Part shown: positions 1 to 19,812 of the stretch, in pieces
Position numbering within the stretch: position 1 is the first letter of the stretch
Layout: the number at the start of each line of letters is the position of its first letter
Origin: Tolypothrix carrinoi HA7290-LM1
GTDB taxonomy: Bacteria; Cyanobacteriota; Cyanobacteriia; Cyanobacteriales; Nostocaceae
DNA: 64,000 nt
Direction: 5' to 3'
NCBI GenBank assembly: GCA_019358935.1
Contig: JAHHIK010000009.1
Coordinates: 44,707-108,706, forward strand
The notes under the pieces: generated by a model
What the model was told of the DNA's origin: nothing
The model's database searches: none
What the model saw: the letters and a program-made list of their open reading frames with translations, nothing else
Translations under genes and position numbers: made by a program

Positions 1-904
1 ACTTGAGTTCACCTTCAAGTTGGATTAGTGCTACGAGTATTTGTTTGAGTTTAACGACGCTTACAGCTTCGACTTCTTTTTTGAGGAAGTACAGCCTTTT
101 GGGGTTGCTGAGTTCGGCGAGTGTTGAGATTTTATTGTCGGGCAGTTTTTCTTCTACCCCAGCTTTCGTAATTAACCAAGTGCGGAAGTAACTTATGAGG
201 GTGGCGACTATTTTAAGAGGGTGTTCATCCTCAACTAGTAGGCGGTGGAGTATTTGTCCTGCTGTATCGGCTCTACTATTTTTAATGGCGTGGGCGAGTT
301 CGGTACAACTGATATTGTTGTTGCTTATAAGTGACTGAACATCTCCTAACTCCAATTTTTGCCCCTGAGCGTAGATAGCAAGTTTGGTTAATTCGCTATC
401 GAGCCGTGCAGTATTGTTTCCAATTGCCTCCACTAGATAGGTAGTGGCGGCGGGGACAAGCTCTAAGGAATGGGTTTTTACTGCTGCTTGAATTAGTTTT
501 TCTATTCCTTGTTTATCCCAACTGGGGATGAGAGGAAATTCTTCAACTTCGGCGTGTTTGAATAGTGCTTTGACGACTTTGCTTCTACCATCAGGTTTCC
601 AAAGTGAGGTAATTAAAAGTAGGTTTGGAGTAGGTACTTTGTCAAGATTTTTTAAGAGTGAGGAAATTATTTCATCCGAACATTTATTGAATATTGTCCC
701 ATCTGTAATGTGGACAATTTTTCCACCTTCCCCCAAGGGAACTGTCATTACCTCTGTTATTGCCTGGGGTATTGCTGCTGCTTTGTTATCAACTCGAATG
801 TAGTTGAAGATTTCCCACTCTTGGGTAGTAAAATCTTTAATTAATTCTTCCACCCTTTTTGATATTGAGTGGATATCTTCCCCATAAATTAATTTTACTG
901 GCAT
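1..904 (-). CDS. holA: DNA polymerase III subunit delta (3' end runs off the window; absent from the ORF track)
   Basis: Manual translation from the ATG at 904 gives MPVKLIYGEDIHSISKRVEELIKDFTTQEWEIFNY...EVMTVPFGEGGKIV, later ...NPKRLYFLKKEV. This matches the cyanobacterial HolA pattern. Confidence 0.88.
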   Translation of the reverse strand, partial: MPVKLIYGEDIHSISKRVEELIKDFTTQEWEIFNYIRVDNKAAAIPQAITEVMTVPLGEGGKIVHITDGTIFNKCSDEIISSLLKNLDKVPTPNLLLITSLWKPDGRSKVVKALFKHAEVEEFPLIPSWDKQGIEKLIQAAVKTHSLELVPAATTYLVEAIGNNTARLDSELTKLAIYAQGQKLELGDVQSLISNNNISCTELAHAIKNSRADTAGQILHRLLVEDEHPLKIVATLISYFRTWLITKAGVEEKLPDNKISTLAELSNPKRLYFLKKEVEAVSVVKLKQILVALIQLEGELK

Positions 905-1125
905 GGGTATCTTGCTAAATGTTTATATATAAGTGCGTTAGCTAGCAAGTGGTGGTAAATAAATTTTCAAGTTATTGATATTTGTAGTTAGTCATTATTT
1001 CTCCTGTAAATTAGATGGTTAAATTTAATTTTTACAAATTTTATCAATTCGATTCTTTATCATTAGAGTTATTTTAATTAACTTATTTATCCCTAAATTC
1101 ATTATTTATAACTTTTGACTGGAGT

Positions 1126-1341
1126 CTATAAAAAATTAACGCTTGATTTTAATTTTGATGCTATTAGATAACATCCTAGGCTGAAGAGAAGACTCGCAAT
1201 TAATGTAAGTACCGCAATTCTAACTAGCGACATTGCGAATAAATCATCTAAATTTTTATAAACTAATCTAGGATTATTATTTCCTATTGGAGTTATTATC
1301 CACATTACTTTTTGTATATTTAGTGTGAAAAATATTACCAC
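1126..1341 (-). CDS. small hypothetical membrane protein
   Basis: 71-aa ORF with a hydrophobic C-terminal helix, co-oriented with its neighbours; very AT-rich and the start is uncertain. Confidence 0.3.
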   Translation of the reverse strand: MVIFFTLNIQKVMWIITPIGNNNPRLVYKNLDDLFAMSLVRIAVLTLIASLLFSLGCYLIASKLKSSVNFL

Positions 1342-1382
1342 AGACTTATTAATTAGGCTGTAGTAATATCATTTTTATCCTT

Positions 1383-2168
1383 TTATAGGATTCCCTTGTT
1401 GCCAACCGATTGTATATCAACTTTACTTTGGTTGACATCTTGAACTGAATTTATAACTTGCTGAGTACCGTGATATTTGCGCCAGCCATCTAAGTCGCTT
1501 AGGTATTGCAACAGCGCAGATGGACCAGCTACCTGATATAGCGAGATGGCTGATTCCCACTCCCGAAAATTTGCTTTTTTATCGTTGAGAATTTTGATAA
1601 TGGCACTGGGAAGTTTGTATCGAGTGCCACTATTTAAATTAATGTGCGGTGTGGTTTCTAGAAGTAGTTCCTGTTCGGATAGGGGTACACCGCCATCTTT
1701 AAGATTTATCTCGTTTAGTTGGGCAGTTATACCTGAGAGAGGTAGGGTTTGTTGGGTTATACTGGCGACTAATATTTTCTGTTTAGTCTTCCTAGATTTG
1801 ACAACTACAGGGTTTTTGGGAATGGGTATTAAGTAGCTTTGTGGAAGTTCAAGTGATAGCTGTTCTTTGAGTCGGTAGGGTAAGGTTTGTTTTTGGGCTG
1901 GGGTAATCTCGTAGGAGAAATTGGCTGTTTGTCTGGGGTCGCCAAACTTTCGGAGTTTGATTCTTACCTTGTAAGATATACTTCCTTGAATGAGTGTATG
2001 ACTGTCAATAACTGTAGGTATACTATGTTCCCACCATACAATTTCAACAACTCGGTCGCCGTCTAATGAGTTATAGACATTGGTTAATCTGGCGTAGGGC
2101 TTTACTTCAAGGAAGTTATTTAACCACTTGCGTTGTTTTTTGTTGAGCAGTGATAATTTTTTAGCCAT
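1383..2168 (-). CDS. hypothetical protein with a possible clamp-binding motif (QLSLEL)
   Basis: 261-aa ORF starting 2 nt after the polB stop; family not recognised. Confidence 0.7.
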   Translation of the reverse strand: MAKKLSLLNKKQRKWLNNFLEVKPYARLTNVYNSLDGDRVVEIVWWEHSIPTVIDSHTLIQGSISYKVRIKLRKFGDPRQTANFSYEITPAQKQTLPYRLKEQLSLELPQSYLIPIPKNPVVVKSRKTKQKILVASITQQTLPLSGITAQLNEINLKDGGVPLSEQELLLETTPHINLNSGTRYKLPSAIIKILNDKKANFREWESAISLYQVAGPSALLQYLSDLDGWRKYHGTQQVINSVQDVNQSKVDIQSVGNKGIL

Positions 2169-2170
2169 TG

Positions 2171-3985
2171 TTAGAAAAGAGTCAGTTGTTTGCCGCTGTT
2201 TAGCATTTTAGGGTTTGCAATTTGCAGGATTTCTACTCGTTTTTGGGCGAGTAATTTGATGTAATACTGTGATGAATACTTTTGTAGGCTGTTGATGTCT
2301 GTTACACCCAGAATGCTGTAATAATAAGTCACGACATCTCCGGGTTTTCCAAGTTTGAGAAGTTCTTTTTCACCCTCTTTAATTCTGCGAGTAATGCACA
2401 AGTTTTCTTTTGGATATTCCCTTGATAAAATATGGGATAAAATGTGGGTGTAATACTCTTCTGCTGCTGATATATCTTGGATTAGGAGAGTTAAATACTG
2501 AATGGAAAACTCTTTCTCTAGTTGCGAGCGATCGCGATTGCGCCAGTTGCCTTTGGTGATGATTTTCCCGTGCGGAAGCCATAGGAGGTAGTTTTTGGTT
2601 CCTCTTTCCGGGATAAACATCGCCGAAGCGATAAACTCTAGTTTGACGGTTATCCCTTCAGGCAGTTGAGATTGAAGTAAACAATGTATCTCTTCTGGAT
2701 TGGGGTGGGTGAAAAACACCCCGTCAGTGTCAACTTCCACGGGAGTACCCCCTTCATAAGTGATAATTTCAATCATGAGTTTGAGTACCTTTCTGCTGTA
2801 GGCTGTCACCAAAGCCGCAGCCTCCATATCGTTGAAGGCGAGTTCAGATGTGCCGAAGAAGCCAAATTCGGAGTTAGCTAGAACTTTGACAGATTCTCTC
2901 TTCTCCTTGGCAGCAATATTTCCACTAGATGCAAGTTGTTCCAGTCTAGATTTTTCATTCACCAGATATTGCAGGATACTTAGCCCAATACGTTTTGTAT
3001 CTTTGATTGAGCAAATACCCTTGTCTAGCATTGCCCAAGGGTGCATTGAGCTAATATCTGCATATCCGACCTTTCTATACAGTCCAGGGATAGAGTAGGC
3101 CATGCCTCCCTGGAATTTGTACTTGCGATCGGGTTTGGGTTTATAGCCTGGATAATGATGCTCAAATATTCGCTCCCACTTGGTACCATTACCAGCAAGT
3201 GCTAGCTGCTGGAGATTCATTTCCGGTACAATTAGTGCTTCGTAATAGTATGACGGTACAAGTCTGTTAGCAATTAACTGCGTGTCTTCGAGGTCGTACA
3301 CAAGATACTCTTTTAGCCGTTTCCATCCCTTACTGTTGGGGCCATCTTTCCAACAAGCGAGGATTTCCTCATAAGGAAGAACCAGTCTGGTGTTTTGGCG
3401 CAGTCCCATGTCCAATACAGCTTTTTTGAGCGACCTTCCGTTGGTTAGCTTTTTGGTGACAAAATCCCACCTGAGAACGCAGATGTAAACGTCTACATGC
3501 TGGCTATTTTGGACAAATACCTCCCGAATTTTTAGCGGTTCGCCTCGTACCTTGGCAGTTCGGATAGTCCGAGATTTGGATGCAATTTTAAATGGGTGTT
3601 TTATACCATGCAGGTTGGATCTAGTGATAATGAATGGAATGTCAAATTCCATCCCGTTGTAGGTGAAAATTACATCTGGATTTTTCTTCTTTAAGTGATT
3701 GAAAAAGTCTGTGATAGTTTGTGCTTCTGAAATATTCATAAAAACAGTAGGATATCCCATTTCATCCATACACCCGATGGCATAAATGCGATTTTCAATT
3801 GGGTCTATACCTGCTGTTTCAATATCGACAAATAACTGTGAAAGTTCCTGGTATGGCTTGAGTTGTACTTGCGGTTGCCAGGGTTGAATTGGAGTGGGGT
3901 CTTTCCAATAAATGTCTAGTTTATCTTCATCGACAATGATTATACCCCTAGATTTTTTGACAAAATCCCTGTGGTTATAACTCAT
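2171..3985 (-). CDS. family B DNA polymerase with 3'-5' exonuclease domain
   Basis: Exo motifs VDIET, YNGMEFDIPF and YDLEDT; polymerase motifs DISSMHP, KVLANSEFG and VDTDG; C-terminal QLTLF. Confidence 0.92.
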   Translation of the reverse strand: MSYNHRDFVKKSRGIIIVDEDKLDIYWKDPTPIQPWQPQVQLKPYQELSQLFVDIETAGIDPIENRIYAIGCMDEMGYPTVFMNISEAQTITDFFNHLKKKNPDVIFTYNGMEFDIPFIITRSNLHGIKHPFKIASKSRTIRTAKVRGEPLKIREVFVQNSQHVDVYICVLRWDFVTKKLTNGRSLKKAVLDMGLRQNTRLVLPYEEILACWKDGPNSKGWKRLKEYLVYDLEDTQLIANRLVPSYYYEALIVPEMNLQQLALAGNGTKWERIFEHHYPGYKPKPDRKYKFQGGMAYSIPGLYRKVGYADISSMHPWAMLDKGICSIKDTKRIGLSILQYLVNEKSRLEQLASSGNIAAKEKRESVKVLANSEFGFFGTSELAFNDMEAAALVTAYSRKVLKLMIEIITYEGGTPVEVDTDGVFFTHPNPEEIHCLLQSQLPEGITVKLEFIASAMFIPERGTKNYLLWLPHGKIITKGNWRNRDRSQLEKEFSIQYLTLLIQDISAAEEYYTHILSHILSREYPKENLCITRRIKEGEKELLKLGKPGDVVTYYYSILGVTDINSLQKYSSQYYIKLLAQKRVEILQIANPKMLNSGKQLTLF

Positions 3986-4098
3986 GAACTAGAGACTTTT
4001 CTAATTGTGAATGAAAGATTTTTCGCGTTCAGGATATATTGCAATACTTGTGGGTACTGACTGAGGAAGTATTCTATATCTTTAATACTGGTAATCAT
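3982..4098 (-). CDS. 38-aa small protein translationally coupled to polB
   Basis: MITSIKDIEYFLSQYPQVLQYILNAKNLSFTIRKVSSS*; its stop overlaps the polB start as ATGA. Confidence 0.4.
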   Translation of the reverse strand: MITSIKDIEYFLSQYPQVLQYILNAKNLSFTIRKVSSS

Positions 4099-4813: not shown

Positions 4814-4921
4814 GTATTTAACAAAGAAATTGTAAGTTGTATAATATTAAGAGCGTTAGCTATAGCTGCGGTTTTATTTGAACTAATAACTAACTCTCCC
4901 TAATCAGGGAGAGTTGCTATT

Positions 4922-6211
4922 CTAAGCTTGTTGCAGTTGTGTTTGTTGCAACTTTTGAATAACTTCCACCCACACTAAGGCTTTCTTTCCATTAATGGGT
5001 GTAAGCTTTTGCCAGTGTTCCTGTAACTGTGTCTGCGATAAGTGGGGTAACTGTTCTTTTGCCCAGTTAATTGCGTCTTGGGCAGTTTTCCAATCCTTCC
5101 AGGGTTGAGTTTGGGAACTATTCTTTGTGGTTTGAACTATCTCGATAATGGTAGCTTCCATCCACAAGTGCGCGTTTTCATCTCGCATAAGATTTTGACG
5201 TGCCATCAGGAGTGCGATCGCACTGTGGATGTGGTTAACGCTCCACGATTTGGAGATTGTTGTAAGGGAATTCCAGGTTTCCTCTTCGAGTTGGGTAATA
5301 TTTCTGCCATCGGGGTTGGTTTTGCAGACAAGCAGGTCTTTTAGAAAGCTGACAAGGCTTGTGTGGATGGTGATTGGGTGCTTGCCGCATTCAATCCAAT
5401 TTTGGAGAATGCCTAAATTGCCTGTAATTTGTCTAAGAGTGATATTTTCAAAGAAAGTGACTAAATCGTATTCGGGGATAATACCCGATAGTTCCCATAC
5501 CCAATTGGGAGTGATTTCTCCTTCTCCCAGCAAGGTTAGTTGGTCTAAAAGTTTGAGTGAGTCGCGCAAGTGTCCCTTGTTTGTTTTGGCGACGGCTGTT
5601 AATGCTAGCGGATTGATATTTATACCTTCCTGGTGGGCAACTTTTTCTAGGTAATTTACAACTAGTGAGAGGGTAACCCTTCTAAAATCGAACTTTTGGC
5701 AGCGGGAGGTAATAGTTTCTGGGACTTTGTGTACCTCGGTGGTACAGAAGATGAACACAACATGGGCTGGTGGTTGTTCTAATGTTTTGAGTAATGCTTG
5801 CCACGATTGGTGGGAAAGGGCATGACATTCATCTATTATTAGGATTTTGTACCTACCCTCGATTGGTTTAAGTTGAAGGTTGGATACCATCTCGCGGATG
5901 TTATCTACACCAGAGTGGCTGGCGGCATCAAGTTCGGTTACATCGAGAGATGAGGAGTGGGAAATAGTCTGACAAGAATTGCACTCGCCACAGGGTTCGG
6001 TTGTTGGTTCCTCTGTTGATTGACAGTTGAGAGATTTGGCGAGAATGCGCGCTGTAGTCGTTTTACCCGTACCCTTGGGACCGGTAAATAGATAGGCTGG
6101 GGCAGTCTTTTTGAGCAAGATCGCATTATTCAGGGTGCGTACAATATGTTCTTGTCCGACTATTTGTGAAAGTTGCTGGGGGCGATACTTGAGATGCAGT
6201 GGTGTGTACAT
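4922..6211 (-). CDS. dnaX: DNA polymerase III subunit gamma/tau (clamp loader ATPase)
   Basis: LKYRPQ, Walker A GPKGTGKT, zinc module PCGECNSC, ELDAAS, IIDECH and SRC motif; likely start is the ATG at 6211 (MYTPL). Confidence 0.95.
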   Translation of the reverse strand: MYTPLHLKYRPQQLSQIVGQEHIVRTLNNAILLKKTAPAYLFTGPKGTGKTTTARILAKSLNCQSTEEPTTEPCGECNSCQTISHSSSLDVTELDAASHSGVDNIREMVSNLQLKPIEGRYKILIIDECHALSHQSWQALLKTLEQPPAHVVFIFCTTEVHKVPETITSRCQKFDFRRVTLSLVVNYLEKVAHQEGININPLALTAVAKTNKGHLRDSLKLLDQLTLLGEGEITPNWVWELSGIIPEYDLVTFFENITLRQITGNLGILQNWIECGKHPITIHTSLVSFLKDLLVCKTNPDGRNITQLEEETWNSLTTISKSWSVNHIHSAIALLMARQNLMRDENAHLWMEATIIEIVQTTKNSSQTQPWKDWKTAQDAINWAKEQLPHLSQTQLQEHWQKLTPINGKKALVWVEVIQKLQQTQLQQA

Positions 6212-6281
6212 ATTTGAGAAAGTCAAATTTTCTAAATGGATTTGTGTATAGCCAGTAAAAATGCTGGCTATACTTGTTGGT

Positions 6282-7598
6282 CTATAAAGCTGCTGTTTCT
6301 ACTGGTTTTGCTTCCTGCTTGCGCTTGCGGGATTTTGACTTGCTGGTGCTAGCTGTATCAGACGGGGATGTTTCTGTTATGCTGGTTGTTTCATTAGATA
6401 CCTCTTGTTCGGAAATATCTACTGTTTCACTTTCTGGCTTGGAAGTGGTGGCAAGATTTTCTGGTTTATCGAAATCTTGGACGTCTACGGGCATAATTAG
6501 TGTTAATTGGTCGAGCAATCCACCTACAGGAGAAATGATGACTGGTTGGAGGGGTTTGTTAAATCTGAATAGGATTTCATCGGTTGAAATGTGTTTGAGT
6601 GCTTCTTGTAGATAGCTACTGTTTACCCCAATACCGATGTTTTCCCCTATACTGGTTTGGGTTTTCATAAGTAAAGAATCTACCGCATCGCCAATATCAG
6701 TATTACCTGTCATTAATGTTGCTTGTTGATCGTTCACCTCCCACAGGATTTTAACAATCTTGTGTTTTTTCTCTGCGAAATGGCTGATTCTTTTGAGAAT
6801 AATTTCCATACCCTTGCGCTCTACAATTAGCTCGTTGGCAAAGCTTTTAGGTATAAGGTTGTTGATACGGGGAAATTCTCCTTCTAACAACCTGGATGTC
6901 AGTTCGGCATTTGGCAAGATAAACTGGATGGTGTTGTTTGCGACTTTGAGCGTACAACTGTTATTTTCGGCTGTTGTCGCCAAGATTTTTGCCAACTCGG
7001 TGAGGCTTCTTCTAGGGACTGTGAATGATAGTGGTTCGTAGTTTCGCTCCAGCTTGGAAGATACAAACGCAAGGCGGTGTCCGTCGGTGCTGGCGCAACT
7101 CCAATTTTCACCTTGTAACTGAAAATGTACGCCTGTGAGGATGAGTTTGGTTTCGTCTGCGCTGCTGCAATACAGACAAGCTTCCAAGGCAGCTTGTAGC
7201 TTCTTGCTAGGAATGCTGATTTCGGTAGGGTTTTCTGTTTGTGGGATGCTTGGAAAATCTTCTGGATTTCCTCCTATAATACGACATTTTCCCGTGCTGT
7301 GGCTGATAACACAGGCGCGATCGCTTACTTCAATGTCCAGTTCGCCGCTTCCTAGATTGTTAACTGTATCGACTAGTAGTTTGGCGTTTAAAGCGACTAC
7401 ACCTGAGCGTATAATATTAATTATCGCTGTAGTTTTGATACTTACATTCAGGTCAGTACCAATGACGGTAAGTCTGCCCGAATCCGAGGCTTCGATTAAC
7501 AAACTTCCGAGTATAGGGTCTACTGGTTTTGTGGATATGCCGTTTTTGGCTGTTTCTAAGAGTTCCGCCAGTACAGATTGAGTAATTATTAGTTTCAT
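6282..7598 (-). CDS. dnaN: DNA polymerase III beta sliding clamp with an extended low-complexity C-tail
   Basis: PILGSLLIEA, GTDL, ILTGV, ASTDGHRLA, SRLLEGEFP and LIMPV motifs. Confidence 0.95.
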   Translation of the reverse strand: MKLIITQSVLAELLETAKNGISTKPVDPILGSLLIEASDSGRLTVIGTDLNVSIKTTAIINIIRSGVVALNAKLLVDTVNNLGSGELDIEVSDRACVISHSTGKCRIIGGNPEDFPSIPQTENPTEISIPSKKLQAALEACLYCSSADETKLILTGVHFQLQGENWSCASTDGHRLAFVSSKLERNYEPLSFTVPRRSLTELAKILATTAENNSCTLKVANNTIQFILPNAELTSRLLEGEFPRINNLIPKSFANELIVERKGMEIILKRISHFAEKKHKIVKILWEVNDQQATLMTGNTDIGDAVDSLLMKTQTSIGENIGIGVNSSYLQEALKHISTDEILFRFNKPLQPVIISPVGGLLDQLTLIMPVDVQDFDKPENLATTSKPESETVDISEQEVSNETTSITETSPSDTASTSKSKSRKRKQEAKPVETAAL

Positions 7599-7670: not shown

Positions 7671-8582
7671 TTAGTAAGGCAATTTGTCTAATTCGGATGA
7701 ATTAGCTGGTGAGATTCCGACTGTTTCTACTGCACTTGGTAGTAGTAAATTATTATCTAGACCTGGAATTGCCATAGGTTTGTTGGGTTCGAGGGATTCC
7801 CATACGTAATTCTTAACGTCAGCTTTAAACCCTACGAAGTAGTTTTGCCATGTTTCTAGTGTTGGGGTTTCGTGTTCGACTACCTTGCAAGCAAAACTTT
7901 TTTGTTTGGTTCCAGCTTGTTCTCTAGCTGTTTTGAAGCAAAAGATTCCTAGAGAATAAAACAAGGTATTTTTTTGTTTGGCTGGGATACCATTAATAAT
8001 TGAATGGCAAGTATTTAATTCTTTGCAGAATTCTTGCCAATGAGTGGCAAAGGATGCTTGATTTGCGCCCATTGCCTTATAAGTTAGGGGAATTTGATGC
8101 AGGGGTTGATTATTTTTGTCTAGCAGGAAGACTTGAAAATACTGTAGGTTGCCAATATTTTCGTCTTCTTTCATTTCAAGAGTGTACTTTCCTAAAATTA
8201 TTGTTGACGAGTTTGGTTCTTGGGATTGCTTTCTATCAAATCCCAACACTGGCGATTTGGGACACACCAACATTCTGGGATTTTGGATAAGAATACCCTT
8301 TTCTTCACCACCGCTAGACTCAAACGTGTAGGTTATGAGTTGCTTGTCGTCAAAGTCCATCCAACCTGCATTTGCCATTTGGTCTACACTTATGAAATAC
8401 CCGCAGGTTTGTGAGGTAGTACCGCGAAGTGCTTGGATGCGAGGGAGTCGTGCATTTGGGTCTAAAAACTCAGGCGAACAAAATTCATCTTTTTCTGTTA
8501 CTTGAGGAATTGTTGTTGAATGAGTTTCGGCAGTATTACTTTTTGTTTGAGTTTCATTTAAATTGGCTTGAGTTTTAGCCAT
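7671..8582 (-). CDS. conserved cyanobacterial plasmid protein (DUF5895-like)
   Basis: 303 aa, DEFCSPEFLDPNARLPRIQALRG; the family name is from memory of similar proteins. Confidence 0.6.
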   Translation of the reverse strand: MAKTQANLNETQTKSNTAETHSTTIPQVTEKDEFCSPEFLDPNARLPRIQALRGTTSQTCGYFISVDQMANAGWMDFDDKQLITYTFESSGGEEKGILIQNPRMLVCPKSPVLGFDRKQSQEPNSSTIILGKYTLEMKEDENIGNLQYFQVFLLDKNNQPLHQIPLTYKAMGANQASFATHWQEFCKELNTCHSIINGIPAKQKNTLFYSLGIFCFKTAREQAGTKQKSFACKVVEHETPTLETWQNYFVGFKADVKNYVWESLEPNKPMAIPGLDNNLLLPSAVETVGISPANSSELDKLPY

Positions 8583-10425: not shown

Positions 10426-10693
10426 TGAGTGATTCTTCTGTACCCCAGACTTTTATTTCCCAAGGAGTATTTAGGCGTTCGCTTGGGCGAATTACAGCTT
10501 TAGTGCATTTGTCCTTACGGGTTATCCATACAAGGAAGCTTTCGGCTTTTTCCTTAGAGTTAAACCCAAAGTAGGTAGTTTTTCTTACTCCCGTAGGGCT
10601 GGTAATGGTGGCGACTCGCGGAGATAAAATGTTAAATGTCCAACCATCGGGGGTAAGTTCAACTTTTTTGACTTTAATTTCTGGGGAGTTCAT
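10373..10693 (-). CDS. hypothetical protein
   Basis: 106-aa ORF with ATGA overlap with the upstream gene. Confidence 0.7.
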   Translation of the reverse strand: MNSPEIKVKKVELTPDGWTFNILSPRVATITSPTGVRKTTYFGFNSKEKAESFLVWITRKDKCTKAVIRPSERLNTPWEIKVWGTEESLIVKCALKDLQENATIAL

Positions 10694-11364
10694 AATTCAA
10701 CTTCAGGAATGGCATCTAGATATTCTTTAGTTGTAATTTCCCTATTCATCCACTTGTGATGGATGATTTCTAAACTTTCTTGCTCAACTTCTTGTTGAAT
10801 TTCCTCTACCGCAAACTGTGTAATAATAGACAACAGTCTTTCTTTGAAAGCTATGTGTTTTACTTCTGAATAGGTGAATTGGTAAATATCCGCTGTGTTG
10901 ACGAACAAGTAGATTAGATTAATTTTTTCCGCTGGTAATTGGGTTTTCTCATAGAGTAAGAATAATCTTAGTTGAGTATGAAATGAATTCTCTAAAGACT
11001 GAAAATTTGATGGTTTTTGGATAGTCCAGTCCAGTGCAATTACCTGTTGTTCCTGATAAATGATTAAGTCATAATTAGCGTGGACTAACTGTGACTTGTA
11101 GAGATACTGCGCTTCGGCATTCCATTGTTTGTTACCAGGAATTTCTAGAAATGGTAGCAGCACTTTTACCCACTTGCCTAATTGAGGATATGCCTTTAAG
11201 AATGGTTCTACAGGTAGTCCTAGCCCAATCTGCTGCATGATGATGTGAAACTTGCCACCAAGTTTTTCACCTTGGCTAATTGGTGATGTACGTATGGTGT
11301 TTTTACCTGAACTTTTACTTTCACATTCAAGCTTTTCTAACAGACTTGGATTAAATCTGTCCAT
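10690..11364 (-). CDS. PD-(D/E)XK nuclease-like protein, possibly inactive
   Basis: GKFHIIMQQ...YDLII...LDWT...QLRLF resembles the PD-(D/E)XK_1 family, but has DWT in place of DWK. Confidence 0.6.
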   Translation of the reverse strand: MDRFNPSLLEKLECESKSSGKNTIRTSPISQGEKLGGKFHIIMQQIGLGLPVEPFLKAYPQLGKWVKVLLPFLEIPGNKQWNAEAQYLYKSQLVHANYDLIIYQEQQVIALDWTIQKPSNFQSLENSFHTQLRLFLLYEKTQLPAEKINLIYLFVNTADIYQFTYSEVKHIAFKERLLSIITQFAVEEIQQEVEQESLEIIHHKWMNREITTKEYLDAIPEVEL

Positions 11365-11428: not shown

Positions 11429-12262
11429 TTAGACAGTGTGATATTTATCTAAGTTTTTAACTGTGGTTTGGATACTGCGACAAGACATAGAAATTAGGTT
11501 GAAGTAGCTAACAAACTTGCTTATTTTTCCTATTAGGGTTAACTCTAATAGGTATTGGGATGCAATGGCTGATGTCATGCGGTTTATGAATAGAGTTTGG
11601 TGATTAAGTATTTGAATTTCCGCACACGAGAGGTTGTTGCTGCTAAGTTCTTCAGGCTTTGGGATTAGTAATTCGGGATGTACCAGCGCTGGGGATGGTA
11701 GGTGTTTCCAGAATGCGGGTTTATCTGGGTTATTGGAGGCGGTTACAATATTGAAATCAGCGTGGGTTCCTAATATAACTTGTCCTGATAGTGAACTGTT
11801 ACCGCAGTCTAGCCAGAAGAAGTCAGCTTGTTCGCGCGGGCTGTTATATTTTAAACACGAGTGAATTTGTGCCCTGGCGGCAGCATTGTCCACGCAGCCG
11901 ATGATAATTGTGAGGGTATTCCACTTGTAATTTTCTACATGGTTAGGGGAAAACCAATCTGAAATTGCTGTTACTACTACCCCATATTTGGCACTGCACC
12001 TGGTGGCTAGACATTGTGCTTTGGGAAAACTTATCTCAGATGGTTGGTAATTTTGGCGTGCGATATTTTTAGGTTCGACGCTATCTCCATCGATGATGGT
12101 GAGGTTAGCCTTTTTCTCGTTTTGCTGTAGCTGTACTATGAGGCGGCAAACATCTTCGGCAAGATACCCCCCTGTGCCACCAGCCCCTACTAAAATAAAA
12201 TTTACTTTGCGGTGGGGACGGGGGAGAACGGGTAAGAAAAATTCTGTGTCGATTTGTATCAT
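11429..12262 (-). CDS. ThiF/E1-like adenylyltransferase (PRTRC type)
   Basis: VGAGGTGG, DGDSVEPKNIARQ, GCVDN, LDCGN and LSCAE motifs. Confidence 0.92.
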   Translation of the reverse strand: MIQIDTEFFLPVLPRPHRKVNFILVGAGGTGGYLAEDVCRLIVQLQQNEKKANLTIIDGDSVEPKNIARQNYQPSEISFPKAQCLATRCSAKYGVVVTAISDWFSPNHVENYKWNTLTIIIGCVDNAAARAQIHSCLKYNSPREQADFFWLDCGNSSLSGQVILGTHADFNIVTASNNPDKPAFWKHLPSPALVHPELLIPKPEELSSNNLSCAEIQILNHQTLFINRMTSAIASQYLLELTLIGKISKFVSYFNLISMSCRSIQTTVKNLDKYHTV

Positions 12263-12831
12263 AACTCAAATATCAAATTAGGGTCAATTTCAATGAAGTG
12301 GTTGTATGCCCCTACGCGGGTGTAGATGGTAGGCTTTTTGTCAACTGTGCCGATAATTCCAAATATGCGGAACTTTCCTGACTCCTCTTGGTTGTCTTGG
12401 TTGCTGGGGATTGCTCTCATACAGCCGTGTGAGTGGATTTCAACCAATGTTTGGCTGTATCTGAGGTTTGTATTTTCCAGCGAGCGCACATGAGTTGAGG
12501 ATGCTTCTTGTGCTGGTGTGTGACACCACCATTGGCTATTTGCAACCCCCAAATAAAAAAGGATTTCTTGATGGGGATTAATCCGCGCAGCATTGATGAT
12601 GTCTGCAATTATGCTTGCTGGCACTTTTGGTACATTTAACTTGAAATAGGGTTGTATTTGTGCCAATCCTATTATGTGGGTATGGGCGATTTGCAAGCAG
12701 ATTTCTAATTCTGGGCGGTGCGATCGCGCATATACTCCATCAGATGCAAGCCAGTATTCCTGAAGTTTTTGGCTCTTTGGGGGAAGGTTGTGACTGACAG
12801 CGTAGTTATAGCTGATGAAGAGGTTATTCAT
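12259..12831 (-). CDS. JAB/Mov34 metallopeptidase (PRTRC protein A-like)
   Basis: Intact JAMM motif E...HSH-x7-S-x2-D (HSHGCMRAIPSNQD). Confidence 0.9.
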   Translation of the reverse strand: MNNLFISYNYAVSHNLPPKSQKLQEYWLASDGVYARSHRPELEICLQIAHTHIIGLAQIQPYFKLNVPKVPASIIADIINAARINPHQEILFYLGVANSQWWCHTPAQEASSTHVRSLENTNLRYSQTLVEIHSHGCMRAIPSNQDNQEESGKFRIFGIIGTVDKKPTIYTRVGAYNHFIEIDPNLIFEL

Positions 12832-13540
12832 GTTGGAATAGATACTTGGGTATATCGTTTGGCGTTTTGATTGTTTGATACTCTCTAGCGACTAATTCCT
12901 TTGCTGGGAAGGATTTTGTGGTTCGTAGGCTGATCAACAAGTCGCAGACATTGTGGGGGTGTGATTTTGATTTGTTTTGGCTGAAGTCTTGGTTGAAAGG
13001 GCTGTTCCAGAACAATTTCCAGGTTTTATTGATTGAGTCGGGATTACAAGCAGGTGGGATGTTCCTACCGAAGCAAATTTTATTTGAGTCGTCCCAAATA
13101 TTTGGTAACGGCGCTTTGTATAATTGACAATCCTGCTTGAAGGTTCTTCCTTTAACTGCCCATAAGTAGTAGCTGCTGTTGCATCCAGCGAATATAAATG
13201 CTGGCATGGGAATAGTTATTGTATTGTTTCCTTCTGGAGTTTGTATTGAGACTGAATATTTTTGGGGCGGGTAAAATTGAATAATACCTTCTCCATTTGG
13301 TGTTATTTCCCACCACAGCGTATTGGGAGATAACCATCCTGAATTTACAGTTTTGGCTGTAAACGCTTTTTCCACAGCTTCAGGCGATAGAAATTTATGC
13401 TGTGTTTTATTACCTTCTTTTTCTATCAGTACAAACTGTCCTTTGAGAATGATTAGATGCCCTAAAATTTCCTGCTGTGGAATGTTATTCAGTATGACTT
13501 GAGTGTTTAATCCTGTATTTATATGGCAGCTTGATTCCAT
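12824..13540 (-). CDS. prokaryotic E2 family D protein (PRTRC protein B-like)
   Basis: LYKAPLPNIW...KICFG with the conserved Cys, and FWNSPF; lies directly upstream of the JAB gene in the module. Confidence 0.85.
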   Translation of the reverse strand: MESSCHINTGLNTQVILNNIPQQEILGHLIILKGQFVLIEKEGNKTQHKFLSPEAVEKAFTAKTVNSGWLSPNTLWWEITPNGEGIIQFYPPQKYSVSIQTPEGNNTITIPMPAFIFAGCNSSYYLWAVKGRTFKQDCQLYKAPLPNIWDDSNKICFGRNIPPACNPDSINKTWKLFWNSPFNQDFSQNKSKSHPHNVCDLLISLRTTKSFPAKELVAREYQTIKTPNDIPKYLFQHE

Positions 13541-14241
13541 ATTTTGACTACCTTCTTTCGATTGGCTATTGATACTTCTATCCAGTCTGATAACTCTTCA
13601 AATTGGTTTAATATGATGCTGGCTTCTTGCCATTTATCGGCGATCAGTAATACATTTTCTTCACTCCACTCCCACCAATATCCAGTTTCATAGGTTGTGT
13701 CTAACCAAATATTGCCTGTTGAATAGTCGAGAACACTCAGGCTAGTTACTAAATATTTGATTGGTGATTTTAACTTGTTACAGATTTTTACAAGTTTTTG
13801 AAAGTCTATATTTTCCACATCTGCTATATAATCAGGTTTAAACCCAAATTCTTCTTCCCAATATTCAAGGCTATACCCACTACCCATAACCGAGAGTAAG
13901 AATTTTTCGCTTGCCTCTAAATCTTCAAGGTTTTCATTCCACCATTCAAGTCTTTGTGGTAATATAGCTATACTTTCATACTCTCCGTATGTTTCTATTT
14001 CATCAATAAATTCAACTGGAAACAAGTTTGAATTTACTAGGTGAATAAATTCAATTTCTCTATCTGAATATATGCAATCAGGATGTGTTTTTCTGTTTAT
14101 AGGTGTTTTTGACTCATACCATTCTTCTGCAAATAGTTTTTGATATAAACTGAGTAAACTTGCTTTTTGAGAGAAGTTTTCCAGATAGGTGATTGCTTCT
14201 GTACAGGTGATGGGTATTTTAAATAGTTCTAGTGATATCAT
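13519..14241 (-). CDS. acidic hypothetical protein in the PRTRC module (protein F position)
   Basis: 240 aa, Trp/Glu-rich, overlaps the E2 gene; the assignment is by synteny only. Confidence 0.6.
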   Translation of the reverse strand: MISLELFKIPITCTEAITYLENFSQKASLLSLYQKLFAEEWYESKTPINRKTHPDCIYSDREIEFIHLVNSNLFPVEFIDEIETYGEYESIAILPQRLEWWNENLEDLEASEKFLLSVMGSGYSLEYWEEEFGFKPDYIADVENIDFQKLVKICNKLKSPIKYLVTSLSVLDYSTGNIWLDTTYETGYWWEWSEENVLLIADKWQEASIILNQFEELSDWIEVSIANRKKVVKIWNQAAI

Positions 14242-14285
14242 GATGAACGATAACTGCCGCTAGTGTGGATAGCGGCGTTGCTTAA

Positions 14286-14708
14286 CTACAATACGGGATA
14301 ATTGCTGGATGCAGGGGGTTGTTGTCCGAGGGACTTAAAAACCTTATCTGTATATGTTTCCCAGTTTTCCCCCATTTTGATTGTCTGATTTATTTGTGAG
14401 CGCATACTAATTAAAACTTCTAAAGTTAGTTGATTTTTTATTTCTAGAAGCTTCAATTCCCAAGCTAATACAAACGCTGGGTTAATTTGTTCAGATGCTA
14501 ATTTGAGTTCTGTGATGCAATTACCCTTGGTTCCAGCGCGTTTAACAAGTCTTATTTCGGTTGTTTCTCCTGTAGTTGTACGAGTAATTTCGGCATTGGC
14601 ATATTCTGGAAAATAAGTGCTGATTGCCAGTCTTAGCTTGTTGTCATCTATTGCTGTATTTGGTGGGATAGGAACTTGCTGCCCTTCGATAATAGCGATA
14701 TAATTCAT
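14286..14708 (-). CDS. ubiquitin-like protein (PRTRC protein C-like) with a C-terminal extension
   Basis: TYFPEYANAEI...LVKRAGTKG at residues 31-62 is the protein C signature; 78 further residues follow. Confidence 0.75.
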   Translation of the reverse strand: MNYIAIIEGQQVPIPPNTAIDDNKLRLAISTYFPEYANAEITRTTTGETTEIRLVKRAGTKGNCITELKLASEQINPAFVLAWELKLLEIKNQLTLEVLISMRSQINQTIKMGENWETYTDKVFKSLGQQPPASSNYPVL

Positions 14709-14713
14709 GGCGA

Positions 14714-15163
14714 TTAGAATAGTGAAAGTTGTTGTTTATCCGACTCGTTTGGATGGAAGTTATTAGATAAATCTCGTTTTTGTACTTGTTTACGCTCCTG
14801 AGATTGATTAATATGATTAAGAGCAATCTTTCTTTTTTCGGCGGCTTCAATAATTTTAGGTAAGGCTACCTCTAATTCTTGAATACTTTCTTGAATGATG
14901 GTTTGTTGGGTTATTTCCTGATAGCTAGCATTTTTGATAATGGGAGGTGCATTTTTAATACCAATGGAGAAAATAGCCTGTTGCTCGTCTGGATAAATTT
15001 GGATGGTTATTAGATAGACTTTAGGGTTTGATATGCTGTTGCTGTTATCTTCATAATCATCTGTTTCATCACTATCTTCTAAGCTATTGTTGTTACTAGA
15101 ATTCAAATCACTACTGTAACTAGCTTTGGAGTTAGTTACACTTTCTTGCTCTTGATTGTTCAT
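14714..15163 (-). CDS. hypothetical protein (PRTRC protein E position) ending in QLSLF
   Basis: Likely start is the ATG at 15163, overlapping the prim-pol stop as ATGA; acidic N-terminus and C-terminal QQLSLF. Confidence 0.7.
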   Translation of the reverse strand: MNNQEQESVTNSKASYSSDLNSSNNNSLEDSDETDDYEDNSNSISNPKVYLITIQIYPDEQQAIFSIGIKNAPPIIKNASYQEITQQTIIQESIQELEVALPKIIEAAEKRKIALNHINQSQERKQVQKRDLSNNFHPNESDKQQLSLF

Positions 15164-16128
15164 GAGAGGTTGGCAAATTTTGCAAGGGTACGAATGGTAA
15201 TGCCTGTTCTGCGGAAAGACTGCCATTTGTAGGCACATTCTCCTGGTTTGTATTTGGGTGATAGTTGACTCCATATGTCCCAGGCTTTGAGTAAGGTAGG
15301 GCTGACTGATTTAAGTGCCATTCCAACTTGAATCCAAGTTGTATAGTCAGAAGCGAACCTGGGGTGTATGACTTCTAAGAATGTAAGTGCAGCTTGAATA
15401 TTGGTTTCAATATCGGGGTATAAGTTTACGCATCTGTTTGCCTGATGTGTGCGGTTAGATTTTTCTTGGAGAGAACTCGATGGAGAGTGAATTACCCTTT
15501 CCTTCTCCTGCTTTAATAGCATTTGGGCTACTACCCAATCTGGTGCGTAAGCAACTTGTTTTTCTTGCGGACTGCAACCGGGAACCCACCGATAGTATCT
15601 TCCTTCTGGGTGGTAGGAAGGAGGTAAAACTGACGCATGATTTTTACCTCTAAACTCCAGATTTGAGATTTTGCTGGACTTGATTGATGATTTTTCAGTG
15701 ATTAAGTATAGAAGTTGGCGCTTGTATTCACCTCCAGAGGTGAAGGCGACAGTCGCCGGGAGGTATGCAAGTGCGCTTTCGTATAACTTTTGGGGAGAAA
15801 TTTTGTCTATTTCACCCTCTTCTAGTTTTTTGTTGAGGATTAGAATTTGACCCCAGGCGCGGAATCCGTCGCAGTCGATAGCGACGATGTGTCCTTCGGG
15901 TTGGTTATCGCCGCAGACAATAGCAACCCCAGTGGCAGGTGTATACCTCTTCCCCGACCAAATTTTGCATCTAGTACGAATGAGTTCGGCTTGTAGCTGT
16001 TTGGGTGAGTAAGTTTTATACTGCCATTCTTTTCCCCCCAGAGGTCGCTTGCCAAATGTGGGTATAACCCTCCATCTGTCGGGTAGTGTTTCCAGGGACG
16101 AGATAATTTTACCTGCCTGGGCGTGCAT
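15160..16128 (-). CDS. bifunctional primase-polymerase with a PriCT-2 domain
   Basis: GKRP, GVAIVCG, VAIDCD, SVLPPSYHP; PriCT-2 YTTWIQVGMALK...WDIWSQLSPKY...CAYKWQSF. Confidence 0.88.
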   Translation of the reverse strand: MHAQAGKIISSLETLPDRWRVIPTFGKRPLGGKEWQYKTYSPKQLQAELIRTRCKIWSGKRYTPATGVAIVCGDNQPEGHIVAIDCDGFRAWGQILILNKKLEEGEIDKISPQKLYESALAYLPATVAFTSGGEYKRQLLYLITEKSSIKSSKISNLEFRGKNHASVLPPSYHPEGRYYRWVPGCSPQEKQVAYAPDWVVAQMLLKQEKERVIHSPSSSLQEKSNRTHQANRCVNLYPDIETNIQAALTFLEVIHPRFASDYTTWIQVGMALKSVSPTLLKAWDIWSQLSPKYKPGECAYKWQSFRRTGITIRTLAKFANLS

Positions 16129-16234
16129 GATTTCATTTGATTCCTACTAGTTAACTTTAGTAACTAGATGCATGAGCTTTTGGTGGTGGTTAGCTGTATT
16201 TTGGGCAAGCAGTTATTACTACTTGCCCTATGTT

Positions 16235-16978
16235 TTAGGCTAATCGTTGACTAAGAGCATTTTCCACTTGATAAGTTCCAAGAGTGCAGTTTGCATCATA
16301 GGGGAAAGTGGGAAATTCCGGGAATTTATTTATAGCTTTTGTTACCCTACACATCACCATTGCTCCCTCCCTTCCCTTTTTGTTTAGTAAGTGATGATAG
16401 CTGATGACTTCAAATTCATTGTTACCTGCTTCAAATTTGCTTTTTGCGTGTAGGGAAATAGCCTTTTCCCAATTGGGTTGCCATGACATAAGGGTATTGA
16501 TTGCTTTTTCTCTAAATGTCGTGTTATCCATGTAATTAAGAATATCTGATACACAACTCTCCCTTTTAGCTATAACTTCGCGAGCGTAATTAATTAACCA
16601 GTATTCTGCTTCTTGAAGTAGGGTGCGTGATTTTCTATCCAGGCATATTTCGTCATGGCTTTTTGCCATTACATATGCCCGTTGCTCAAAAACCATACCG
16701 TTAAGGCGCATTTTTAAATCAGATGGATAAAAGGTCATCAAATCAGCTAATTCATCACTAATTGCAGGTAAGGGATATTTGATCGGGGGATAGATTTTGA
16801 CTTGATATCCTAAATTTACTGCATGTTCAACTATTAGGTGAATATCGGATGCAGGGATACAATCACCTATTTGGTAATTTTTATCCAGAAGTAAATATGT
16901 TGGCGCATGAACAATTTGGAATTTTTGAGGTGATTGTTCGCAGTCAGGAACTAGCTCTACGTACATAATACTAACCAA
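16235..16978 (-). CDS. hypothetical protein
   Basis: 247-aa ORF in the run. Confidence 0.7.
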   Translation of the reverse strand: MVSIMYVELVPDCEQSPQKFQIVHAPTYLLLDKNYQIGDCIPASDIHLIVEHAVNLGYQVKIYPPIKYPLPAISDELADLMTFYPSDLKMRLNGMVFEQRAYVMAKSHDEICLDRKSRTLLQEAEYWLINYAREVIAKRESCVSDILNYMDNTTFREKAINTLMSWQPNWEKAISLHAKSKFEAGNNEFEVISYHHLLNKKGREGAMVMCRVTKAINKFPEFPTFPYDANCTLGTYQVENALSQRLA

Positions 16979-17109
16979 ATTATTTTTTATTTGGTTAGGC
17001 GTTAGTTAGTGTCGTGATTTTGCTGTTGCAGTGTTGTGTAAAATTTCTTATAAAGCTAATAGACTTCATATAAAAAGTTCTGCTCTTAATGTATAGAGCA
17101 GAACTTGTT

Positions 17110-19812
17110 TTAGACTATTTGTACTTCTTGTTGGATTAAATTTTGAAGTATAAGTAATCCAACTTGTTTGGAGATTGCTGTATTGTCATCGGGGCATCTG
17201 TAAATAACAGTACAGTTTGAACACCCGTGCTTGCATGGACAATTTTCCACTAAGAATCTTGCCCTCGATACGGCTTTTTCCAGATATTGAAATAGTGTAT
17301 TGCACATTCCGGTTCCTCCCTCAACTGTATCGAAGAAGTAGCCGACTAAGTTAGGCTGAGTTGGTTCTTCATAAAGCATAAAGTCAATATCTTTACTACT
17401 AGCACCATGTTCAACTAGTGGTAATGCTAGCATCAGTTGATGTGCTAGACTGTGGATACAAATGTCGGTTTCTTTATATTCAAATAACTCCCTCTCCTCT
17501 TTTGGAATGTACTTCTGATTCTTTATTGGTAACCTAATTTGCTCTACTTTTGACTTGAAGAAATTTCTCGCTTGTCGGTCTATCTCAATTTGCAAACAAC
17601 TGGTAGAACAGCTAATAGTCAAAGCTTCCTTATATAATACTTCTTCTACTAGTTGGATTATGTCTTTATCTGTGAGTTCGCTGTTGCATATGGAACAGTT
17701 TTGTAGTTTACTTGCTAGAGATTGATTGTGGTTTCTGCAATCTTGGTTTGGACAAGTCCATTTTGACTCTCGATTGTATAACCTGTATCCGGACACTGAC
17801 TCAGAGATGTTACATATTTTAGGAGTAAGTTTTATTACTCCCATTGGCAGTTTGATTGACTTTGCTTCCCCAGTAGTTTTAACTTCCTCAAATTTAATTA
17901 GTCCTTGAGGGCGGGTAAATAAATTTGTTTGTCCAATAGGCTTGAGGAAAGCTTGCCCTTCTTGGATTTTTAACTCTGATGATTTATACCAAACTGGATT
18001 ACCATCAAAATCCTGGGCTGTATAAATTGCATTAGGGTATACTTCTCTTAAAGCAGTGTTGACCGCACTTTGTTCAAACTCCTCCCCAGTTGAGGTGTTG
18101 ATATAGTTGATATTGTTGCTTCTGCTCCCCCTAATCTTGATATCGCCGTGTACGTAACCTAAATTGCGGGCGCACGCTAGCTTGCTGTTGAAGCTGTACA
18201 CGAGCTTGTTTTCTTGAAGAAGTTGGTTTGCGATCGCAAGTCCAGTTTGTCCGAAATGCTTGCTGATTTGGTTGATTGTCGGGCGTGACTCTTTGCAGCA
18301 GGCTAGAATATGGCACGCGAGTAGATTTTCAAAATTGGGGTTGAAGTTGATGATCTCCGGTGGGTCGGTTAACAACCGTTCGGGATTTTTCGAGTAGTAA
18401 GAGTCTAAAATAGACTGTTTGGAAGGTATGAAGACAACTAGCCCTTCTTGTTTTCTGCCGGCACGACCTGCCCTTTGCCGGAAGGATAGGATGCTTCCAG
18501 GATACTTGCAAATCAGGACGGCATCAATACAGCCGAGGTCTAACCCCGCTTCGAGAGCTGACGTTGACACGATAAACTTGATTTCCCCAGATTTGATATC
18601 TGCAATGATTTTCCTCCTTTGGTTGTTTTTCAAATTGGCGTAAAATGCAGAAATACTATTTTGGAGGTGAAATAACCCATTTTCAGTTAATATTTTGCGG
18701 ATTGTTTGGGTTAGGGTTTTGACCATTTCTCTGCTGTCGCAAAAGCATATTCCCACCACATCTTTACTGACAAGTGAAGCTGCTATTTCGGCGGTTGCGT
18801 ACAAAGTACTATTCTGGGGTTTGAGACTGATAAATGTGGTTTCAGCTTTTCTTGCACCGCTTTGGCTAATTACTGTAAAATTGCTTTTACGGTTGGAAAT
18901 CTTTTGGGCTATCTCTTGGCTATTGCTGATAGTAGCTGAGGCAAAGATATATTGTAATTTGGATATATCACTTCCAGCTAGTTTTATCAGTAGTTGAGTG
19001 CGACGGTTTAGCAAAGCGAAATTGCTACCAAAAATACCACTATAGTAATGAGCCTCATCAACCGTGATTATGGAAATTTTGCGTAGTGTTTCAATGAAGT
19101 TATAGTTATCAAATTGGTAGTTGGTAAGCTCGTGATTCCAAACATCGGGCGTGACGCAAATAATCGAGGGTTTATGTGTATAAAGCTTTTTGCGCTCTTG
19201 GGATGGAGTATCGCCATTAATATTTAGAATTGCGGGGCGGATAGGCTCTGGTAGGAGATTGATAAACTCCTTTATTTTCTCCTCTTGGTCAAATGCAAGG
19301 GCTTTGAGGTTGAAGAAGATGATACATGAATTGCCTTTGAGACATTCGTGAATAACTGGAAGTAGGAATGAAATCGATTTTCCACTACTTGTTGGAGTTT
19401 CGAGAATGATATCTGATGATTGGTTGTATGCTGACCATGCTTGAATCTGGTGGGAGTATAATTGATTAATTCCTAATTGAGCGAGAGCCATACTTACTGC
19501 TGGATGGACATTTTCTGGTATTGGTTGATAGTTTGCCGCTTGTTCGGGAATTATATCGCAGTGGGCAAGTTTATTTCTACCTTCTAGCTCAGATGCTATT
19601 TGTTGATAAATTAAACTTCTTGGAGATAGAGCATTTTGAACAGGGCTAAGATTTCCTTGTTCTATTTCCTCCCTCCAATTGAAGATAACTTGGCTAATAT
19701 TCCCTTTTATGAAATGGAGATTTTCGCCAATAATTGTGCTAATTTGAATTGTTCCGTACTGTTTGGAGTAAATGCTGCGACTTGGTTGTAACCACTCTGG
19801 TCGGTTGTTCAT
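17110..19812 (-). CDS. SF2 DEAH helicase with DUF1998 zinc domain (MrfA/Hrq1-like)
   Basis: LYSHQ, PTSSGKS, DEAH, SAT, TSALEAGLD, QRAGRAGR; C-terminal DTVEGGTG...CPCKHGCSNC. Confidence 0.93.
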   Translation of the reverse strand: MNNRPEWLQPSRSIYSKQYGTIQISTIIGENLHFIKGNISQVIFNWREEIEQGNLSPVQNALSPRSLIYQQIASELEGRNKLAHCDIIPEQAANYQPIPENVHPAVSMALAQLGINQLYSHQIQAWSAYNQSSDIILETPTSSGKSISFLLPVIHECLKGNSCIIFFNLKALAFDQEEKIKEFINLLPEPIRPAILNINGDTPSQERKKLYTHKPSIICVTPDVWNHELTNYQFDNYNFIETLRKISIITVDEAHYYSGIFGSNFALLNRRTQLLIKLAGSDISKLQYIFASATISNSQEIAQKISNRKSNFTVISQSGARKAETTFISLKPQNSTLYATAEIAASLVSKDVVGICFCDSREMVKTLTQTIRKILTENGLFHLQNSISAFYANLKNNQRRKIIADIKSGEIKFIVSTSALEAGLDLGCIDAVLICKYPGSILSFRQRAGRAGRKQEGLVVFIPSKQSILDSYYSKNPERLLTDPPEIINFNPNFENLLACHILACCKESRPTINQISKHFGQTGLAIANQLLQENKLVYSFNSKLACARNLGYVHGDIKIRGSRSNNINYINTSTGEEFEQSAVNTALREVYPNAIYTAQDFDGNPVWYKSSELKIQEGQAFLKPIGQTNLFTRPQGLIKFEEVKTTGEAKSIKLPMGVIKLTPKICNISESVSGYRLYNRESKWTCPNQDCRNHNQSLASKLQNCSICNSELTDKDIIQLVEEVLYKEALTISCSTSCLQIEIDRQARNFFKSKVEQIRLPIKNQKYIPKEERELFEYKETDICIHSLAHQLMLALPLVEHGASSKDIDFMLYEEPTQPNLVGYFFDTVEGGTGMCNTLFQYLEKAVSRARFLVENCPCKHGCSNCTVIYRCPDDNTAISKQVGLLILQNLIQQEVQIV

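Follow-up and report, generated by a model that had tools for sequence, protein, structure and literature searches.

The 64,000-nucleotide window analysed here (G000:C9:44707-108706 of Tolypothrix carrinoi HA7290-LM1) lies on a Nostocales-type conjugative plasmid contig that is syntenic with pCC7120beta, and it encodes a cassette of six genes for conjugation of a ubiquitin-like protein (Ubl). On its gene content this cassette is operon type 6d of Iyer 2006, that is, PRTRC-like without the PRTRC ParB. Cassettes of this kind have already been described, and what is added here is a strong sequence-level pointer to the beta sliding clamp: the first protein of the cassette, termed protein E, ends in the predicted clamp-binding motif QLSLF, through which it very probably docks on the clamp. 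A wider reading, in which the cassette is aimed at the clamp of the conjugative plasmid backbone and Ubl conjugation would take place at DNA-loaded clamps via protein E, has in our judgement about an even chance of being correct.

The conserved docking peptide is a specific pointer for the 6d/PRTRC cassette, which was described in 2006 and occurs on plasmids of many phyla, and the model strain Anabaena PCC 7120 harbours a plasmid with a close copy of the cassette, in which the end of the E1 is shortened. If the wider reading holds, the reach of bacterial Ubl conjugation would go beyond defence against phages and include the control of replication, a parallel to PCNA modification, and this would be relevant to the question of why many cyanobacterial megaplasmids retain their own clamp and clamp loader but no DnaE.

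A Conserved Clamp-Binding Motif on Protein E

The genes of the cassette, together with the clamp and the polymerase that bear on its interpretation, are as follows.

14714..15163, minus strand: protein E, 149 residues, in the PRTRC E position; small conserved core, variable linker and C-terminal predicted clamp-binding motif
14717..14731, minus strand: QLSLF, predicted clamp-binding motif of protein E, residues 145-149
14286..14708, minus strand: pre-Ubl; beta-grasp-like domain (residues 1-62) ending in AGTKG, plus a 78-residue helical extension (hhalign, model)
13519..14241, minus strand: conserved protein in the PRTRC F position (alignment)
12824..13540, minus strand: Prok-E2_D conjugating enzyme with Cys156 and with Asp185 in place of His (PF14460, 137 bits)
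12259..12831, minus strand: JAB metallopeptidase, PRTRC A-like (PF14464; TIGR03735, 53.4 bits, cut-off 101.8)
11429..12262, minus strand: ThiF-family E1 with Cys213 (TIGR03736, 135.5 bits, cut-off 144.75)
6282..7598, minus strand: dnaN, beta sliding clamp, with pocket motifs DGHRL, EFP and MPV and a Lys-rich low-complexity tail (TIGR00663, 256 bits)
2171..3985, minus strand: family B DNA polymerase (PolB) with 3'-5' exonuclease (PF03104, PF00136, motifs)
2174..2188, minus strand: QLTLF, predicted C-terminal clamp-binding motif of PolB, found in 23 of 24 PolB open reading frames (ORFs) of related loci

The consensus clamp-binding motif is QL[S/D]LF, or more generally QxxLF (PMC12309361). Across 80 GTDB loci (the best 80 of 107, partly related to one another), QxxLF stands among the 12 C-terminal residues in 43 of 47 E ORFs, as it does in PolB; it occurs there in no F, E2, JAB, Ubl, DnaN, loader, DUF5895, prim-pol or helicase ORF and near the C-terminus of 1 of 80 ThiF ORFs, a truncated one, the background rate being 10 in 5707 genome ORFs. 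Among well-sampled backbone families, PolB alone has the C-terminal motif as E does. Of 57 loci, 47 have the strict motif on the gene before Ubl and 56 have the strict or relaxed motif there; 2 further loci have no upstream ORF. The motif on E spans Cyanobacteriota, Chloroflexota and a Nitrospira metagenome-assembled genome (MAG), though the identity of E drops to 17-30%. A profile search for E returned 482 clusters at 50% identity, and the best 150 of these include 98 with the strict and 116 with the relaxed motif, against a mean of 0.2 and a maximum of 3 in tail shuffles. All 150 representatives also score with a profile of the core only; because they were picked with a profile that included the motif, some bias is left in this count.

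Two other proteins of the plasmid contain the same peptide. A 220-residue backbone ORF after holB (L001:17125-17787 = G000:C9:43124-43786, outside the window) ends in QLSLF and is likely a third clamp partner. The methyltransferase-like protein of the window has QLSLF at residues 13-17, where it is not conserved (QL[SDT]L[FW] in 3 of 42). Elsewhere, seven PRTRC ParB proteins (L003:14880-16565 and six others) have an invariant Gln in a four-cysteine loop, as QxxLF in five and as QTEMF and QMGLL in the others; this may be a clamp motif, and as such is a lead only, or it may be structural.

Architecture of the Cassette and Its Known Relatives

The gene order is E, Ubl, F, E2, JAB and E1. The E1 has a GAGGTG motif and a Cys213 that is invariant in 6 of 6 sequences, the JAB protein has the motif E-x-HSH...S-x2-D, and Cys156 of the E2 is invariant in 23 of 23 aligned rows. 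The first-pass annotation of this DNA had described the catalytic motifs of E1, JAB, E2 and Ubl as intact, which holds for E1, JAB and the E2 cysteine but not for the histidine downstream of that cysteine, replaced by Asp185, nor for the Ubl, which does not end in glycine.

The Ubl aligns with PRTRC C (hhalign 90.6%, E 1.3e-6), and its Gly62 is invariant in 25 of 25 sequences. Here, 78 residues follow AGTKG62, and the glycine is terminal only in a Thermoflexales MAG. An alignment-based model (predicted local distance difference test, pLDDT, of 81) shows the beta-grasp-like domain as small and joined to the helical extension by a flexible AGTKG linker; the fold from the single sequence is poor (pLDDT 49). 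Fold searches with the alignment-based model gave nothing at E <= 0.001 or Z >= 8, ubiquitin-like chains matching residues 1-60 weakly (Z 5.2-5.5) and the extension matching generic helical hairpins only. Pseudanabaena and a Thermoflexales MAG encode the extension as a gene of its own, which suggests that pre-Ubl is cleaved by JAB, as shown for the BubAB pre-protein in Bub systems (PMC11601596). As for the remaining proteins, F has a best ESM Atlas score of 0.87 without a family and no similarity to the F of pMOL28, and no family was obtained for E from ESM Atlas. A complex prediction of E (residues 40-149) with pre-Ubl, F and E2 scored 0.06 and 0.11 (mark 0.32), which is no answer and is used neither way.

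Anabaena PCC 7120 is one of the carriers listed for operon type 6d by Iyer 2006 (PMC1779556), the type being a neighbourhood of Ub-like, JAB, E1-like and E2-like genes with an alpha-helical gene, as is found here, and the PCC 7120 orthologues are syntenic. The catalytic Cys expected of the E2 is present as Cys156, whereas the conserved His C-terminal to it is not, Asp185 taking its place; the column of Asp185 is probably that of the His in question, and the PCC 7120-type clade listed in that paper likewise has Asp. Features expected of the type also include a small Ubl with a C-terminal Gly and a JAB-N domain with conserved Arg and Trp. For type 6d, the available part of the same source mentions neither a protein E nor a clamp motif or a link to replication, and the Ubl of the window differs by its C-terminal extension.

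The PRTRC cassette (TIGR03734-03742, for example in pMOL28) has the gene order E-C-F-B-A-ThiF on a mobile element, which is also the order here. The window ThiF, A and B match their PRTRC models, all below the cut-offs (for the first two as listed, for B 63.5 against 131.45 bits), and PRTRC E and F occupy the same positions as E and F of the window with an hhalign probability of 0.2% each. A PRTRC-type ParB heads the pMOL28-type cassette, whereas a prim-pol stands in that position here. PRTRC is named without a function in the available part of PMC3318190.

Bil and Bub systems resemble the cassette in having E1, E2, JAB and a JAB-processed pre-Ubl (PMC11601596). According to the same source, the targets of Bil are phage proteins and Bub works through oxyesters, in contrast to the window cassette, which has the E1 and E2 cysteines, a place in a plasmid backbone and a protein with a clamp motif. 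Bub (6E) further has a DUF6527 protease and an E1 and E2 without catalytic Cys, unlike the two enzymes here; DUF6527 was matched by none of the 26 window ORFs searched. In openly accessible main texts, no paper was found that links 6d/PRTRC to the clamp, gives the cassette a target or describes these plasmid clamp-loader sets, and the available part of PMC7283527 has nothing on plasmid clamp genes.

The ThiF family of the E1, together with PAPS-reductase-family genes near the cassette in 4 non-cyanobacterial plasmids, would allow the Ubl to be a carrier of sulfur or a small molecule for modification of DNA or metabolites at forks rather than a protein tag. The retention of JAB and of an E2 with an invariant Cys speaks against such a carrier, as does the lack of any annotated sulfur-transfer gene in window positions 1-19812, and we regard it as extremely improbable.

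Variants of the cassette were observed on several replicons. In Chroococcidiopsis plasmids (L066, NC_019699/NZ_CP097481) it is split, with JAB and ThiF beside the dnaN block and the E2 about 35 kb away. On Tolypothrix PCC 7601 plasmid 3, the E1 is shortened to 68 residues (L110:9390-9596). In addition, pCC7120beta has two Ubl systems, since it also encodes a Bub (6E) operon, with a nucleotidyltransferase-SAVED cluster after it (L104:216-6382). The genome under study has a second Ubl cassette (contig C24:47307-51477), whose E ends in QLTLFGV.

Association with Clamp and Clamp-Loader Genes

The first-pass annotation had tentatively tied the Ubl cassette to the clamp; that link is supported by the conserved C-terminal motif on E, but its argument from co-location is weaker. 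Co-occurrence was counted on cyanobacterial PLSDB plasmids among the matches listed (60 of 116 VirB4 records and 60 of 91 dnaX records): E2 is on 42 plasmids, holA or dnaX on about 42, and both on 32, against about 15 expected if the 116 records with a related VirB4 are assumed as denominator and close kin are counted. The Fisher p of 3e-11 is not used as evidence, because kin were counted and the denominator was assumed. The co-occurrence that the annotation had called for is thus found, but each set also occurs alone and the two share a backbone. The distance between E2 and holA is 12-63 kb in 21 of 22 plasmids measured. Co-location is therefore weak evidence, and the cassette and loader sets are associated yet separable. 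The cassette is an accessory element, since clamp, loader and PolB can be kept in its absence.

Around ThiF, dnaN lies within 10 kb in 31 of 46 loci with full flanks. A ThiF tree of 46 of 76 rows, from which 30 near-identical Nostoc-type rows had been dropped, has 8 changes of the state "dnaN within 10 kb", some of them false owing to short contigs. A phylum sample of 9 of 301 genomes was too sparse for co-occurrence. Beyond the cyanobacterial backbone, the cassette adjoins clamp or loader genes in unrelated layouts, with ThiF followed by holA in Leptolyngbya, ThiF overlapping dnaX in Lysinibacillus and dnaN 4 kb away in Shewanella; two Bacillota cassette plasmids have dnaN. In the viewed regions of pMOL28, Bacillus halotolerans and Clostridioides, clamp or loader genes do not touch the cassette. 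Lysinibacillus pBsph (L018:16081-20793) also has a Ubl-JAB fusion, and its dnaX is followed by holB and a divergent dnaN-like gene.

Several observations weigh against clamp targeting. The motif counts are not independent, since 38 of the 80 loci (L028-L065) are near kin of one Nostoc-type plasmid. Cupriavidus-type E proteins are not detectably related to the E of the window and end in TDLASLL in 62 of 93 cases, not in QxxLF; the E of Pseudanabaena has QMxLL only, and that of Chondrocystis has no motif. Ten cyanobacterial plasmids are cassette-only and ten loader-only among the matches listed, and the Calothrix PCC 7716 plasmid, in which the six cassette genes have no match, keeps helicase, prim-pol, dnaN, dnaX, polB and holA around the gap. 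Among canonical PRTRC plasmids, dnaN was found in 1 of 10 (Shewanella). On the enzymatic side, the column downstream of the E2 cysteine contains D in 8, H in 14 and E in 1 of 23 rows, with Asp185 here. Across 16 plasmid clamps, not one lysine is invariant, and plasmids in which the cassette is absent likewise keep the Lys-rich tail of the clamp, so no K164-like site is marked. Finally, CBASS and Bil, the bacterial Ubl systems that have been characterised, act against phages (PMC11601596).

A rather unlikely alternative is that the two gene sets are only neighbours in a backbone: the cassette would serve defence, counter-defence or addiction with targets unrelated to replication, and E would bind the clamp independently or sense replication. 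The spacing between separable modules agrees with this, as does the identity to the window genes, which declines in parallel for cassette, clamp-loader and VirB4 genes across plasmid groups; furthermore, addiction or defence was proposed by Iyer 2006 (PMC1779556), and the anti-phage role of CBASS and Bil fits as well. Mere neighbourhood is harder to reconcile with the position of E, directly before Ubl and with a strict or relaxed motif in all but one of the 57 loci, and with the occurrence of the motif on a Bacillus plasmid Ubl. Moreover, neither E2 nor E was found on the five loader-only plasmids searched whole; the E2 profile recovered 5 of 5 positives, and for E there was no positive control.

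The Bacillus case, a Bacillus halotolerans plasmid Ubl (L004:22221-22607) with QLALF on its N-terminal tail and a C-terminal end GAKKG, suggests a further alternative, in which Ubl is a tether: conjugation, directly or via E, would give targets a clamp-docking handle, and the clamp would be the destination rather than the substrate. The lack of an invariant clamp lysine would suit a tether, but one such Ubl fusion has been seen and nothing indicates that E reads or carries Ubl, which makes this quite improbable.

The private clamps invite another explanation. The DnaN of the window is 33% identical to the presumed chromosomal DnaN on contig C71, and such a divergent clamp with its loader often accompanies the cassette (32 of 42, among the matches listed), as would be expected if the cassette attacked or commandeered a clamp of the host or a rival plasmid, with the private clamp and loader serving as a bypass. 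Loader-only plasmids exist, however, and Pseudanabaena and most canonical PRTRC plasmids have the cassette with no clamp found; an attack of this kind is very unlikely. With respect to dnaN, three of the ten cassette-only cyanobacterial plasmids were covered: none was found in Pseudanabaena and Tolypothrix (PCC 7601 plasmid 3), and Chondrocystis has a weak one.

A Possible Mechanism

If the cassette is aimed at the clamp, it may operate in four steps. JAB would first cut pre-Ubl after Gly62 and release the helical extension. The E1 would then adenylate Ubl and pass it via Cys213 to Cys156 of the E2, as motifs and related systems suggest. Protein E would dock on the clamp pocket by QLSLF, a motif of the same kind as that borne by the plasmid PolB. 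In the last step, which is the weakest, E may be an adaptor or the first substrate, with Ubl placed on the clamp or on clamp-bound proteins and removed by JAB. The outcome would be that access to clamps is tuned in plasmid replication or repair, the clamp being either plasmid-encoded, as here, or, for plasmids that lack one, that of the host.

Candidate substrates are the clamp, a partner of the clamp and E itself; a PCNA-like modification of the clamp is unlikely. In eukaryotes, PCNA is ubiquitylated at K164, and the likeness would consist in Ubl machinery being brought to a sliding clamp; no RING E3 was found here and no invariant clamp lysine exists, which leaves at most a functional analogy. 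It is doubtful, too, that the cassette is a full bacterial counterpart of PCNA ubiquitylation, in which E would be a clamp-docking, E3-like adaptor, reversible Ubl on the clamp would switch between plasmid PolB, host Pol III and repair factors, and clamp targeting would be common to the PRTRC/6d family, its motif having moved between E, the Ubl tail and ParB.

Replication Genes and Plasmid Backbone

The other features of the window are listed below.

2..904, minus strand: holA, clamp-loader delta, 317 residues, the last 16 past the window edge; ATGA-coupled to holB (TIGR01128, 172 bits)
1383..2168, minus strand: conserved backbone ORF, 261 residues, without a Pfam or NCBIfam match; present also in the Calothrix plasmid
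4922..6226, minus strand: dnaX, clamp-loader gamma/tau-type ATPase (TIGR02397, 423 bits)
7671..8582, minus strand: DUF5895 protein directly before dnaN in the backbone (PF19247)
9331..10425, minus strand: methyltransferase-like protein (PF05175, weak)
10373..11364, minus strand: two conserved backbone ORFs (224 and 106 residues), retained where the Ubl cassette is absent (locus comparison)
15160..16128, minus strand: prim-pol with PriCT-2 domain, its stop overlapping the protein E start (ATGA; PF09250, PF08707)
16235..16978, minus strand: conserved backbone ORF, 247 residues, without a Pfam match; 36 ORFs in 80 loci
17110..19812, minus strand: SF2 DEAH helicase with MZB (DUF1998) zinc domain (PF00270, PF00271, PF09369)
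28737..40534, minus strand: conjugative type IV secretion region (VirD4, VirB10, VirB4), on the same plasmid (profile matches)

All replication and Ubl genes named by the first-pass annotation were recovered on the minus strand. PolB has the exonuclease motifs DIET, NGMEFD and YDLED and the polymerase motifs DISSMHP, KVLANSEFG and DTDG, and DnaX has Walker A, DEC and SRC; the DnaN pocket motifs are retained in the plasmid clamp. The clamp loader is completed by holB, which lies past the window start on the same contig. To speak of a self-contained replisome, as had been done, is an overstatement: neither DnaE nor DnaB over its cut-off was found in five complete related plasmids (controls 10 of 14 for each), the plasmid of the window being itself incomplete, and among the matches listed a loader occurs on about 42 cyanobacterial plasmids but PolB on no more than 19. 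The gene set is a kit of clamp, loader, PolB, prim-pol, helicase and SSB, short of a full replisome, and for the rest the plasmid probably relies on replication enzymes of its host. Distant relatives of this PolB are found on ten Deinococcus plasmids, at least two of which also have a PRTRC ThiF.

As for the reported ATGA overlaps, they join JAB to ThiF, orf224 to orf106, prim-pol to E (at a second ATG) and, outside the window, holA to holB, but the replication genes are unchained, with gaps of 55, 936, 478 and 748 nt. The minus-strand run is likewise real but not special, as VirB4, VirB10 and VirD4 at 28.7-40.5 kb are also on the minus strand; the whole backbone, transfer genes included, is encoded on a single strand. 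The apparent lack of ParB is a window-edge effect, since the contig continues within 6 kb of the window start with holB, ssb, parA and parB, while a PRTRC-type ParB is indeed absent. The nearest ParB, about 20 kb from E and 326 residues long, is generic (TIGR03734, 80 bits against a cut-off of 279).

The transfer genes, the closest plasmid matches to the window, which are Nostocales megaplasmids, and the gene order from VirD4 to parB, which is the same in the window contig and in pCC7120beta (NC_003240), identify a conjugative plasmid backbone of which the window is an ordinary member. In pCC7120beta, unlike the window, insertion sequence elements come after ThiF, whose end is short. A placement of the cassette in the leading region is unsupported, the relaxase gene, taken as reference point instead of oriT, being about 90 kb from the cassette in pCC7120beta.

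Regulatory elements were sought as well. No iteron-like array is present in window positions 1-24000, an Rfam search gave 0 matches, and promoter-like sites are at chance level (47 against 52). Hairpins lie between many genes and do not settle operon limits. Near a helix-turn-helix gene, a tandem pair of 28-nt units (21171-21226) and a perfect inverted repeat of 21 nt (21962-22022) both contain GCGATCGC-like words, which we take to be HIP1. The contig also has an actin-like gene of ParM/StbA type (L001:9068-10324) besides parAB. Finally, the genome has presumed chromosomal dnaN, dnaX and holA, and a second dnaN-dnaX-holA set is found on contig C173:2952-6923.

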